A DNA stretch of 64,000 nt from Escherichia coli (GCF_044647545.1 NZ_CP172818.1); one strand, 5' to 3'; positions 44,935 through 49,655 are shown, numbered from the stretch's first letter. Numbers and translations are program-made. Notes: a model not told the origin generated them from the letters alone.

Positions 44935-45155
44935 CACCATGACTCCGCCTTTACAGGTAAACCATCACGACCGAGGAAGACTTTAATCATGCGGTCAGTA
45001 ATGAATGTTTTTGTGGTCAGGTTACGAATATATAGTTTTCGCTTTTTAATATTGTTTGCCGAGGCAATATATGTCCGGCCTTCATGAAGAACATAATCGC
45101 CAGGAGTCACACACTGACGTGGTATTTCATCAGTTCCGAAGTGATGTGCAATCAT
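44934..45155 (-). CDS. kilR: cell-division inhibitor KilR
   Basis: ORF 44934-45167; 73-aa product [40 protein letters not shown]... matches recalled KilR. Confidence 0.8.
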
Positions 45156-45596
45156 AATTATCTCCATTTTTACAAATGAACTTTGTTGATGCGGTGTCTG
45201 GTGCCTCCAGGTGACTGCAACCAGTTAACAATTACAGTCGGCTTTCCCACCCAAACCAATAAGGACTAACATGACTTTTAACTGTGCCACGTGCGCTTAG
45301 CCGCATTCACCGCATCACAAAATTCACTTTAAAAAGGGCGGACATCAGCCGAACTTCAAGAAAAAAACTGATGCCGCCAGGACTACACACAGCAATGTCG
45401 TTATTTACAACCGGAGGCGCACTCCCACCATTTAAATTTAACAGACAAGACCGACTCTTTATGGATATCGGAAATGCGCCTTCGTGTTGTGCCCGGTTTT
45501 ATTTCACCACCTCCGGGCTTCGGTGGTCTCGGCTATACCCCTACAGCGAGAGCTTGTGTTAACATTTCAATACCCTTACAGTTGAGAGTTATTGAT

Positions 45597-46382: not shown

Positions 46383-46551
46383 CTTATCTCTCCCCTTAAC
46401 GCCGGGTGGCGGAACTAACTGCTGCACTGCAAAATTTGAATCCCGCCGTCATGTTCATACGCCTCGGGCTGGCTACTTAACCCCTTACCACTGCCTGGTA
46501 ACTCGAAGTATTGCCCGGCGTTCTGTGGGGCGGGGTGGGTGGTATGCTGGA

Positions 46552-46596
46552 ACTATAGGTAATGCCTAATTGATTGTCAATAGGCTATGCCTAATG
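46552..46596 (-). promoter_or_regulatory. leftward early promoter (PL-like) with overlapping operator half-sites, downstream of racR
   Basis: Minus strand reads cctaTTGACAat-17 bp-TATAGT; TGCCTAA/TTAGGC half-sites at 46563-46570 and 46581-46595 (taggc-tat-gccta inverted repeat). Confidence 0.4.
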
Positions 46597-46690
46597 TTTT
46601 GAGCGTAACCTAATAGGTGATGGCGACAGCAGAAAGTGATGGGGGGGTTAAATAACGGAATCCAGGAGTTTTCCGTCAGACCATATAAGT

Positions 46691-47167
46691 TTAAGTTCCA
46701 GTTTTTGTGATGTTCTGGCTTTTCCGTTCAGATTCAAGAGCTTTCAGATACTTACCCACTTTCATTTCCATCGCTGCTATGTAGGCGCGAACATCGTGGT
46801 CAACCCAATCTGGTTCTGTAGCATTTCCAGATAACAGGAAAGCTACAATCGCTCTTATTTCATCAGAGGCTGCTTGATAAAGGTTGTTTATATCTAAAAG
46901 TTCACTTTTTGTATCTGAATTGGTGGGGGTTGGTATGGGGTATTCGTTAAGCCCCCAATGCTCTGGACCAACAACATCAGAAAAGAAACGCCATAATTCT
47001 GGAAGTTTATCTTTACTTATAGAGCCTTTCTTAATCCAGTCATAAATTGATGGTGGTTGGACTTTAAAGTGGCGTGCGACCTCCGCCTTTGATTTGACGG
47101 ATCCCGATGCGATTTTTTTGTTAATGGCCTGCTCTATCGCTCGGCCTAAGTCTTTACCACTAAGCAT
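46691..47167 (-). CDS. racR: prophage repressor RacR (cI-like role)
   Basis: 158 aa ORF with N-terminal HTH-like region; divergent from ydaS; flanked on both sides by operator-like repeats. Confidence 0.8.
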   Translation of the reverse strand: MLSGKDLGRAIEQAINKKIASGSVKSKAEVARHFKVQPPSIYDWIKKGSISKDKLPELWRFFSDVVGPEHWGLNEYPIPTPTNSDTKSELLDINNLYQAASDEIRAIVAFLLSGNATEPDWVDHDVRAYIAAMEMKVGKYLKALESERKSQNITKTGT

Positions 47168-47194
47168 TGCTTAATATTCTCCTATGCGCATTAC

Positions 47195-47264
47195 ATTAGG
47201 CAATCCCTACCCTTACTGCATTAGGCACAGCCTATTGACAATTGCGTTAGGCGTCGCCTAATAT
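47195..47264 (+). promoter_or_regulatory. rightward early promoter (PR-like) with operator repeats between racR and ydaS
   Basis: attaggca at 47195-47202 and 47220-47227; cctaTTGACAat at 47231-47242; perfect palindrome ttaggcg-t-cgcctaa at 47247-47261 in the spacer; TAATAT -10 at 47259-47264. Confidence 0.45.
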
Positions 47265-47290
47265 TTCTGTGTGTTTTTGGAGTTCATTCG

Positions 47291-47587
47291 ATGAAAAAAG
47301 AGAACTATTCATTCAAGCAAGCTTGTGCTGTTGTCGGTGGGCAATCAGCAATGGCTAGGCTTTTAGGTGTATCACCTCCAAGCGTAAATCAATGGATCAA
47401 AGGGGTACGTCAATTGCCTGCCGAGAGATGTCCAGCAATTGAACGTGCAACAAGAGGTGAGGTTCTGTGCGAAGAACTTCGTCCTGATATTGACTGGTCA
47501 TATTTACGACGTTCGGCATGTTGTTCGCAGAATATGTCAGTGAAGCAACTAAATGACAGTAACAAATCCTCATTTGATCATACCTGA
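47291..47587 (+). CDS. ydaS: Cro/HTH-like small DNA-binding protein YdaS
   Basis: 98 aa ORF with HTH (FKQACAVVGGQSAMARLLGVSPPSVNQWIKG); first gene of rightward operon. Confidence 0.8.
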   Translation: MKKENYSFKQACAVVGGQSAMARLLGVSPPSVNQWIKGVRQLPAERCPAIERATRGEVLCEELRPDIDWSYLRRSACCSQNMSVKQLNDSNKSSFDHT

Positions 47588-47609
47588 AACATCAAGAGGC
47601 AAATGATTC

Positions 47610-48032
47610 ATGAAAATCAAGCATGAGCACATCGAATCAGTGTTGTTTGCCCTAGCAGCCGAAAAAGGGCAGGCATGGGTAGCCAATGCAATTACTGAAG
47701 AATATCTGCGCCAGGGGGGCGGCGAATTGCCCCTGGTTCCAGGCAAGGACTGGAACAATCAGCAGAATATCTATCACCGTTGGTTGAAAGGTGAAACGAA
47801 AACGCAAAGAGAAAAAATTCAGAAGCTGATCCCAGCAATTCTGGCAATCCTTCCGCGCGAGCTGCGTCACCGACTCTGCATCTTCGATACCCTGGAACGC
47901 CGTGCATTACTGGCGGCGCAGGAAGCGTTAAGTACGGCAATTGATGCGCATGATGATGCAGTCCAAGCCGTTTACCGGAAAGCGCATTTCAGCGGCGGCG
48001 GTTCTTCCGACGATTCTGTCATTGTTCATTAA
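47610..48032 (+). CDS. ydaT: prophage protein YdaT (cII-position protein)
   Basis: 140 aa ORF immediately downstream of ydaS. Confidence 0.8.
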   Translation: MKIKHEHIESVLFALAAEKGQAWVANAITEEYLRQGGGELPLVPGKDWNNQQNIYHRWLKGETKTQREKIQKLIPAILAILPRELRHRLCIFDTLERRALLAAQEALSTAIDAHDDAVQAVYRKAHFSGGGSSDDSVIVH

Positions 48033-48044
48033 GCAAAAGTTTCC

Positions 48045-48902
48045 ATGCTGTTTGTGCTTATTCTAAGCCACCGGGCAGCATCATACGGGGCAATTATGGC
48101 CGCATTACCATACATGCAACTGTACATAGCTGATTACCTGGCTGACACCATGCATTTGTCAGCAGAGGAGCATGGTGCGTATTTGTTGCTGATGTTCAAT
48201 TACTGGCAAACAGGAAAGCCAATACCTAAAAACAGGCTGGCAAAAATTGCCCGTCTGACTAACGAGCGATGGGCTGATGTTGAACCATCCTTGCAGGAGT
48301 TTTTTTGCGATAACGGCGAGGAATGGGTGCATCTTCGGATTGAGGAAGATCTGGCATCAGTCAGGGAAAAATTAACCAAAAAATCAGCCGCAGGAAAAGC
48401 ATCTGTTCAGGCCAGAAGAAGCAGAAAGGAAGCAGATGTTCAAACAAAACAAGAGAGAAATTTAACAGGTGTTCAAACAGATGTTGAAGTGGTGTTTGAA
48501 CATGATGTCAACACAAAGGCAACTAATAAAGATACAGATAAAGATCTAAAAACAGATCCCCCCCTAAATCCCCCCCGGGGGAATCGAGGTGTCAAAAAGT
48601 TTGACCCTCTGGATATTACTTTGCCGAACTGGATTTCTGTCTCGCTTTGGCGTGAGTGGGTTGAATTTCGCCAGGCATTGCGAAAACCGATTCGAACGGA
48701 GCAGGGCGCTAACGGGGCGATACGGGAGCTGGAAAAATTCCGCCAGCAGGGTTTTTCACCTGAGCAGGTGATTCGACACAGCATCGCCAATGAATACCAG
48801 GGCTTGTTCGCGCCGAAAGGTGTTCGACCTGAGACGTTACTCCGACAGGTTAACACCGTCTCGTTACCGGATAGTGCGATCCCGCCAGGCTTCAGGGGGT
48901 AA
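48045..48902 (+). CDS. ydaU: replication-initiation-like protein YdaU (lambda O position)
   Basis: 285 aa ORF preceding a DnaC-like gene, lambdoid O-P arrangement. Confidence 0.75.
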   Translation: MLFVLILSHRAASYGAIMAALPYMQLYIADYLADTMHLSAEEHGAYLLLMFNYWQTGKPIPKNRLAKIARLTNERWADVEPSLQEFFCDNGEEWVHLRIEEDLASVREKLTKKSAAGKASVQARRSRKEADVQTKQERNLTGVQTDVEVVFEHDVNTKATNKDTDKDLKTDPPLNPPRGNRGVKKFDPLDITLPNWISVSLWREWVEFRQALRKPIRTEQGANGAIRELEKFRQQGFSPEQVIRHSIANEYQGLFAPKGVRPETLLRQVNTVSLPDSAIPPGFRG

Positions 48903-48908
48903 CTGACC

Positions 48909-49655
48909 ATGAAAAATATTGCGACAGGCGATGTTCTTGAACGTATCCGCAGACTGGCCCCGTCACATGTAACCGCGCCATTCAAGACGGTAGCGGAGTG
49001 GCGCGAGTGGCAACTTTCCGAAGGCCAGAAACGTTGTGAGGAGATCAACCGTCAGAATCGTCAGTTGCGGGTGGAAAAAATTCTGAATCGCTCTGGCATC
49101 CAGCCATTGCACCGCAAATGCTCGTTTTCGAATTACCAGGTGCAGAACGAAGGGCAGCGATACGCGTTGAGTCAGGCGAAATCCATCGCTGATGAACTGA
49201 TGACCGGGTGTACAAATTTTGCGTTCAGCGGAAAACCTGGTACCGGGAAGAACCACTTAGCGGCAGCTATCGGGAATCGCCTGCTGAAAGACGGTCAGAC
49301 AGTGATTGTGGTTACCGTGGCTGATGTTATGAGTGCCCTGCACGCCAGCTATGACGATGGGCAGTCAGGCGAAAAATTTTTGCGGGAACTGTGCGAAGTG
49401 GATCTGCTGGTTCTTGATGAAATTGGCATTCAGCGCGAGACGAAAAACGAGCAGGTGGTACTGCACCAGATTGTTGATCGCCGGACAGCGTCGATGCGCA
49501 GCGTGGGGATGCTGACAAACCTGAACTATGAGGCCATGAAAACATTGCTCGGCGAGCGGATTATGGATCGCATGACCATGAACGGCGGGCGATGGGTGAA
49601 TTTTAACTGGGAGAGCTGGCGTCCGAATGTCGTCCAGCCAGGAATTGCGAAGTAA
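48909..49655 (+). CDS. ydaV: DnaC/IstB-like AAA+ replication protein (helicase loader)
   Basis: 248 aa ORF with Walker A ([15 protein letters not shown]) and Walker B (LLVLDEIG). Confidence 0.8.

Follow-up and report, generated by a model that had tools for sequence, protein, structure and literature searches.

The closest described system is the racR-ydaS-ydaT locus of the Rac prophage in Escherichia coli K-12 (Krishnamurthi 2017; Bindal 2017; Wisniewska 2022; Gucwa 2023; Wons 2025). The repressor function of RacR is experimentally established (PMC5700373, PMC9638921); the protein binds the racR-ydaS intergenic region (PMC5700373), and its footprints have been mapped together with three racR promoters, one of them leaderless (PMC9638921). 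The ydaS transcription start, mutagenesis of its -10 element and in vitro transcription are also on record (PMC9638921), and ydaS and ydaT are carried on one mRNA, ydaT having no promoter of its own (PMC11879457). The same architecture and the same YdaT family are found in paaR2-ydaS-ydaT of prophage CP-933P from E. coli O157:H7 (Jurenas 2021; Prolic-Kalinsek 2023; PDB 8bt1), although there the repressor operon includes a parDE-type toxin-antitoxin pair (paaA2-parE2), YdaT does not bind the repressor-cro intergenic region, and YdaS represses PRM more strongly than in Rac. The cI-PRM/OR/PR-cro-cII region of phage lambda shares with Rac a divergent repressor, an OR of three to four operators, a strong PR and a Cro-type first gene; in both, the second gene encodes a tetrameric activator of a leftward, cro-antisense repressor promoter, and replication genes come next. 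Finally, type II toxin-antitoxin modules, the class suggested by the original RASTA/Pfam annotation, resemble ydaST in having two small adjacent genes, one of them encoding a helix-turn-helix (HTH) protein, whose expression is harmful, and in needing a repressor for viability.

We analysed a 64,000-nucleotide stretch of E. coli DNA, referred to below as the window. Over positions 46400-48100 (1.7 kb) it matches Rac of E. coli K-12 at every nucleotide (100% identity to MG1655, C600, J53 and others), so that we are dealing with the published Rac locus without any sequence difference. At a coverage of at least 80% this 1.7-kb module is present in 554 of 5426 complete E. coli genomes, and some part of it in 3770. 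The genes of the region are as follows; racR, ydaS, ydaT and ydaU agree with the RefSeq annotation of the matching K-12 stretch.

46691-47167, minus strand: racR, the CI-analogue repressor, 158 aa (open reading frame; NCBIfam RacR equivalog; RefSeq)
47291-47587, plus strand: ydaS, open reading frame of 98 aa, annotated in RefSeq
47610-48032, plus strand: ydaT, open reading frame of 140 aa, annotated in RefSeq
48045-49655, plus strand: ydaU (O-like/primosomal; PHROG_6451/678) and ydaV (DnaC-like helicase loader; PHROG_50, NCBIfam PRK12377)

The interval 47291-48032 opens with the start codon of ydaS and closes with the final base of the stop codon of ydaT, and both are real genes rather than chance open reading frames. 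Only 22 nt separate them, and Rac differs from lambda here in having no tR1/N antitermination gap between its first and second genes. The match of racR to the NCBIfam RacR equivalog is strong (4e-73; 245 bits, with the cut-off at 200). According to the literature, RacR has no detectable sequence similarity to CI (PMC11014345, PMC5700373). The gene order is thus racR, a divergent promoter with operators, Cro-family YdaS, CII-like YdaT, O-like ydaU and DnaC-like ydaV. This order, with the family matches given below, upholds the original prediction that ydaS and ydaT occupy the cro/cII position. We conclude that ydaS-ydaT is very probably the early-right regulatory operon of the Rac immunity region and the functional counterpart of lambda cro-cII. 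The finding is confirmed and its interpretation supported, and both are already known for this very prophage. A search of 46400-48100 against Rfam returned nothing.

The published PydaST, RacR operators, PracR4 and YdaT-box could each be located in the window. The rightward promoter and its operators, the latter found by pattern search, are these:

47235-47264, plus strand: PydaST, the PR analogue, with -35 TTGACA at 47235-47240, an 18-nt spacer and -10 TAATAT at 47259-47264
47160-47261, no strand assigned: OR-type cluster of RacR operators, motif (T/A)TAGGC-N3-GCCTA(T/A)
47247-47261: RacR operator inside the PydaST spacer, the perfect palindrome TTAGGCGTCGCCTAA
47221-47235: RacR operator of the OR cluster
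47196-47210: RacR operator of the OR cluster
47160-47174: weaker RacR operator of the OR cluster, whose central CAT is the racR start codon

In a consensus scan PydaST is a near-consensus promoter (10 of 12 positions), and it would start transcription near 47271, about 20 nt 5' of the ydaS ATG; in isolation its activity is approximately 25,000 Miller units (PMC11879457). The operators of the OR cluster repeat every 25-26 bp, and the motif agrees with the operator derived from RacR footprints (PMC9638921). Allowing at most two mismatches, TTAGGC-N3-GCCTAA occurs at five sites in the whole 64 kb (47247, 47221, 47196, 46580 and 46555), and all five flank racR in two clusters. It is these close matches and their clustering that are informative, for at three mismatches or fewer the same pattern occurs 17 times over the whole window against 22.6 expected and is not enriched. 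The pattern TTAGGC-N4-GCCTAA recovered no operator flanking racR (17 matches against about 23 by chance), and N3 is the correct spacing. Two terminator-like features (47246-47262 and 46581-46593) were likewise rejected, being operator palindromes with T-rich DNA 5' of transcription starts. The arrangement bears out the claim that ydaS-ydaT lies under a rightward promoter controlled by racR. Published experiments show that RacR occupies the (T/A)TAGGC-N3-GCCTA(T/A) operators that overlap PydaST and thereby silences the promoter, and that a fall in RacR releases a single bicistronic ydaS-ydaT mRNA.

The second operator cluster forms part of a mirror element on the other side of racR, not mapped in the Rac papers considered here.

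46552-46613, minus strand: PL/OL-like element 3' of racR, with TTGACA (46580 to 46575), a 17-nt spacer and TATAGT (46557 to 46552)
46555-46569, 46580-46594 and, weaker, 46599-46613: RacR-type operators overlapping the PL-like promoter (pattern search)

The PL-like promoter matches the consensus at 11 of 12 positions, and the element is connected with the PR region by a 35-nt inverted repeat (46573-46607 and 47208-47242). We read it as a putative PL/OL of Rac, from which ydaG, ydaF, kilR, racC and recET would be transcribed. Depletion of RacR induces ydaF, ydaG, kilR, ydaE and racC 40-70-fold (PMC6765115), which fits this reading. OL and OR would lie about 690 bp apart, and looping by a RacR octamer is conceivable. 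An explicit mapping of PL/OL in Rac was not found in the open-access literature, whereas in CP-933P both PL and OL operators have been tested (PMC8630535). Further to the left, just upstream of kilR and on the leftward strand, two sub-threshold Rfam matches recall dicF-dicB of prophage Qin: a DicF-like match at 45336-45391 (minus strand; 39.1 bits against a gathering score of 48, E 5.5e-6) and an STnc100-like match at 45148-45334 (minus strand; 28 bits against 47).

YdaS belongs to the Cro family. It matches Pfam YdaS_toxin (PF15943; 3.2e-31), P22_Cro (PF14549; 4.8e-9) and PHROG_35, as well as the solved Cro proteins PDB 3bd1 (3.9e-10), 5w8y, 8co2, 8c7k and P22 Cro 1rzs; the Cro-like domain comprises residues 9-71, with a tail of 27 aa behind it. 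Its gene also stands in the position of cro, as the first one 3' of PydaST (the -10 ends at 47264 and the ATG is at 47291) with racR divergent. Experiments have shown that YdaS represses its own promoter PydaST (PMC9638921), 16-fold in one study (PMC11879457), and that it favours Rac excision (PMC11014345). Unlike lambda Cro it does not repress racR (PMC9638921), which counts against an equivalence with cro. The YdaS homologue goes under different names in phage records ('repressor protein cI', 'cro' or 'hypothetical protein').

YdaT is assigned to the YdaT/CII-like family both by profile (Pfam PF06254, 9.6e-11; PHROG_163 'CII-like transcriptional activator', 2.2e-37) and by full-length matches to the solved YdaT homologues 3c4r and 8bt1. 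Residues 23-162 of 8bt1, the YdaT of CP-933P, align to residues 2-140 with 30% identity (E 4e-14). The recognition-helix arginine R57 is invariant in an alignment of seven sequences (A1), in which H56 is variable; YdaT with H56A and R57A loses DNA binding (PMC11879457). A Pfam scan of YdaT gave no lambda CII match, only YdaT_toxin and a chance match to SCAN, and YdaT is therefore a CII analogue rather than a member of the CII family; others likewise report that similarity to lambda CII is not detectable (PMC9986795). The protein is a tetramer, of 77.6 kDa by size-exclusion chromatography, whose oligomerisation is disrupted by L107P/A110P (PMC11879457), and a crystal structure of the CP-933P homologue is available (PMC9986795); members of the family are expected to tetramerise through a C-terminal four-helix bundle. 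Besides the box at its own ATG, YdaT footprints cover sites between racR and ydaS and others 5' of rcsA, a host gene (PMC11879457). Rac excision is unaffected by YdaT (PMC11014345), a result that counts against the lambda-like reading. Given that YdaS does not repress racR and that YdaT has no effect on excision, the circuit resembles that of lambda without being identical to it. A role in lysis and lysogeny is not demonstrable in K-12, because Rac is defective.

The original prediction expected, from what is reported of related cryptic prophages, that the ydaST products inhibit growth when derepressed and that racR is conditionally essential. Both expectations hold, and both properties have been demonstrated in the Rac prophage itself, not only in related ones; the experiments then proposed are those already published. 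Silencing racR by CRISPRi raises ydaST expression and causes killing and filamentation, effects that are abolished in ΔydaSΔydaT (PMC5700377), and deletion of racR failed in wild type and in ΔkilR but was possible in ΔydaS-T or Δrac (PMC5700373). That a prophage repressor is listed with the 'essential genes' of E. coli K-12 is hence explained by this locus. Which product kills is disputed between reports, and this counts against our main reading. The 2017 papers attributed killing to YdaS and filamentation to YdaT (PMC5700373, PMC5700377), with YdaS lethal and YdaT alone inactive and possibly insoluble (PMC5700373), whereas in 2023 YdaT was found to be toxic and YdaS not (PMC11014345). Toxicity of YdaT falls from 69-fold to 12-fold in an rcsA mutant, and is thus only partly dependent on rcsA (PMC11014345). 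Published experiments show that YdaT binds upstream of rcsA and that the rise in RcsA disturbs cell division and LPS, with filaments and death as the outcome; this harm is why racR can be dispensed with only in cells that lack ydaST or all of Rac.

On a different account, which is also how the 2017 papers frame the locus, one or both of YdaS and YdaT serve as dedicated toxins; racR-ydaST would then form an atypical 'toxin-repressor' or toxin-antitoxin addiction module, selected to kill cells that lose the repressor. The essentiality of racR speaks for it, as does the constant co-occurrence of ydaS with racR in 154 genomes (PMC5700373), and the Pfam (PF15943/PF06254) and RefSeq names are still 'toxin YdaS' and 'toxin YdaT family protein'. 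The homologues behind these names, however, are DNA-binding regulators of Cro and CII type. YdaS and YdaT match HTH DNA-binding families and structures only, with solved Cro and YdaT homologues and without the toxin-type domain or fold of a type II module, and YdaS, YdaT and RacR gave no matches in the PADLOC defence library. Single ΔydaS and ΔydaT mutants are viable and the two products do not neutralise each other (PMC5700373, PMC5700377); co-expression of ydaS and ydaT is not protective (PMC5700373, PMC5700377, PMC11014345), and control lies with a third, divergently encoded repressor alone. Loss of RacR leads to excision that relieves toxicity, which is the opposite of addiction (PMC11014345), and the same genes fill the cro/cII slot of functional phages (Rac-SA53, mEp237). 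The YdaT of CP-933P, unlike that of Rac, is non-toxic (PMC8630535), which argues against a dedicated toxin and is also to be counted against our main reading. Jobling (2018) criticised the toxin interpretation, regarding YdaS and YdaT as Cro and CII analogues and pointing out that lambda CII is toxic when overexpressed as well (PMC5917428); work on CP-933P, in which bistability was shown, likewise treats them as regulators and not toxins (PMC8630535, PMC9986795). An addiction module is therefore most improbable, and the best description of YdaS and YdaT is that of phage regulators which do harm when expressed ectopically. The databases still name them for toxicity ('toxin') and not for their function (Cro and CII analogues), a textbook example of names that have fallen behind.

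Our reading departs from the published description of Rac on one point, the leftward promoter that YdaT activates. Three features are involved:

47603-47620, no strand assigned: YdaT-box ATGATTCATGAAAATCAA, an inverted repeat spanning the ydaT ATG at 47610 (pattern search)
47381-47413, minus strand: PracR4, the published reverse promoter within ydaS, with -35 TTGACG (47413 to 47408) and -10 TACGCT (47386 to 47381)
47577-47582, minus strand (47582 to 47577): candidate -10 TATGAT of a box-adjacent, PRE-like leftward promoter (comparative sequence)

By direct count the hexamers of PracR4 lie 21 nt apart, and the usual sigma-70 spacer is 16-19 nt, so PracR4 is unlikely to be a strong promoter. The YdaT-box has one mismatch to TTGATT-N6-AATCAA, and a cognate box is thus present at the gene start; YdaT binds an inverted repeat, whereas lambda CII recognises direct TTGC repeats. 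DNase I footprinting and mutagenesis support the box (PMC11879457), and YdaT with an intact box raises leftward transcription 29-fold and increases racR expression (PMC11879457). Published experiments thus show that tetrameric YdaT, an HTH protein, binds the inverted repeat across its own start codon and switches on leftward transcription that raises racR expression, a PRE-like loop that would restore lysogeny. A plus-strand sequence at 47553-47581 (ATGACA-17-GATCAT, 9 of 12 positions) was considered as a promoter for ydaT and rejected, the ydaS-ydaT spacer being inactive in published reporter assays (PMC11879457, PMC9638921).

For comparison we took YdaT loci from seven phage records, 80 IMG/VR loci retrieved with the YdaT alignment and 80 more retrieved with the CP-933P YdaT as query. 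In nearly all of them a box-like inverted repeat lies at or near the beginning of the part homologous to YdaT; most of these boxes have 0-2 mismatches, a few 3-4. The first 30 nt of ydaT from the ATG are 73-100% similar to the window, and in relatives of at least 90% the similarity is still 83-100% deeper in the gene. From 30 nt upstream of ydaT it falls to random (about 25%), and we therefore place a mosaic junction at the YdaT-box, that is, at the ydaT start codon. Copies of ydaT at least 90% identical to that of Rac are preceded by many unrelated cro-type genes, for example dicA/dicC in the functional phage Rac-SA53.

The flanks of 165 loci fall into 25 unrelated clusters, and across this junction 24 of these clusters keep a hexamer TAnnnT at a distance of 20-22 nt to the left of the box (binomial P about 4e-35; clusters share less than 70% identity with one another, and the TAnnnT background is 1.1% per offset). 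With the clustering threshold set at 50% the rule holds in 16 of 17 clusters, and it holds in all nine clusters of CP-933P type; CP-933P itself has a nearly identical box across the ydaT ATG and a box-to-(-10) spacing equal to that of Rac. Only the inner bases of the hexamer vary, T1, A2 and T6 being constant, as expected of -10 elements. Two other origins of the hexamer were rejected. It is not a by-product of the stop codon of the upstream gene, since the window and one of the compared loci (L002) have their stop codons at other positions, and it is not a YdaT half-site, the variable inner bases suiting a -10 rather than TGAT/ATCA. No match to a -35 is present in the candidate promoter, which fits dependence on an activator. 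Taken as a -10, TATGAT would set the transcription start near 47570 and the centre of the YdaT-box at -41.5, the classical class-II activator position (CRP-type, cI/PRM-type activation); the lambda CII site, in contrast, flanks the -35. On these comparisons the YdaT-activated PRE analogue of Rac is probably the box-adjacent class-II promoter and not PracR4, which may be a separate weak antisense promoter. As part of the same reading, and held with the same confidence, the box-to-(-10) geometry would be a family-wide rule kept across the mosaic junction, from which it follows that each exchangeable immunity/cro cassette would supply its own correctly spaced -10. A YdaT-dependent promoter of PRE type, directed leftward, has been demonstrated on a ydaS-ydaT junction fragment of CP-933P (PMC8630535), in support of the box-adjacent position.

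The published assignment, by which YdaT activates racR at a distance through PracR4, about 190 bp from the box (PMC11879457), and the TAnnnT next to the box is not a promoter element, is possible though we think it doubtful. The 29-fold activation, dependent on YdaT and on the box, was measured with a fusion containing PracR4, and tetrameric YdaT could loop the DNA (PMC11879457); the activated fragment, on the other hand, also included the box-adjacent region, and in the main text of that paper we found neither start-site mapping nor a test of PracR4 mutants under YdaT induction (PMC11879457). Mutation of the PracR4 -35 raised the output of the convergent PydaST (PMC11879457), so that PracR4 must have some activity, and this counts against the box-adjacent reading. 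Apart from its long spacer, PracR4 has against it that it sits in ydaS: most YdaT loci carry some unrelated cro-type gene in place of ydaS, yet TAnnnT is retained in all but one of the flank clusters. The new content of our analysis is this hypothesis on promoter placement only, namely a putative conserved -10 beside the box and a mosaic breakpoint exactly at the box. If confirmed, the box-adjacent -10 corrects the promoter assignment of Rac and provides a simple sequence rule for finding PRE-type promoters in many lambdoid prophages with YdaT-family genes.

The conserved geometry also bears on the suggestion of a domesticated YdaT that now serves the host as a stress regulator, with OxyR as its repressor and rcsA as its target, the operon being kept for the benefit of the host and its part in the phage switch being vestigial. 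OxyR does repress ydaT, YdaT does bind upstream of rcsA and the toxic locus stays unmutated (PMC11879457), and the module is intact in the 554 genomes mentioned above. Nevertheless, the site at rcsA matches the box in degenerate form and could be adventitious, and ydaST is not known to be expressed naturally under any condition (PMC5700373). Retention of the box and its -10 spacing across phage mosaics is selection that the phage circuit alone explains, and we consider domestication improbable.

A subgroup of CII-like proteins from mEp237 and Klebsiella (L003 3468-3485, L005 and L007) has its box 48 nt inside an annotated open reading frame of 178-179 aa. The annotated N-terminal extensions of this subgroup may be mis-called starts; in phage mEp237 (L003) the box begins with an in-frame ATG.
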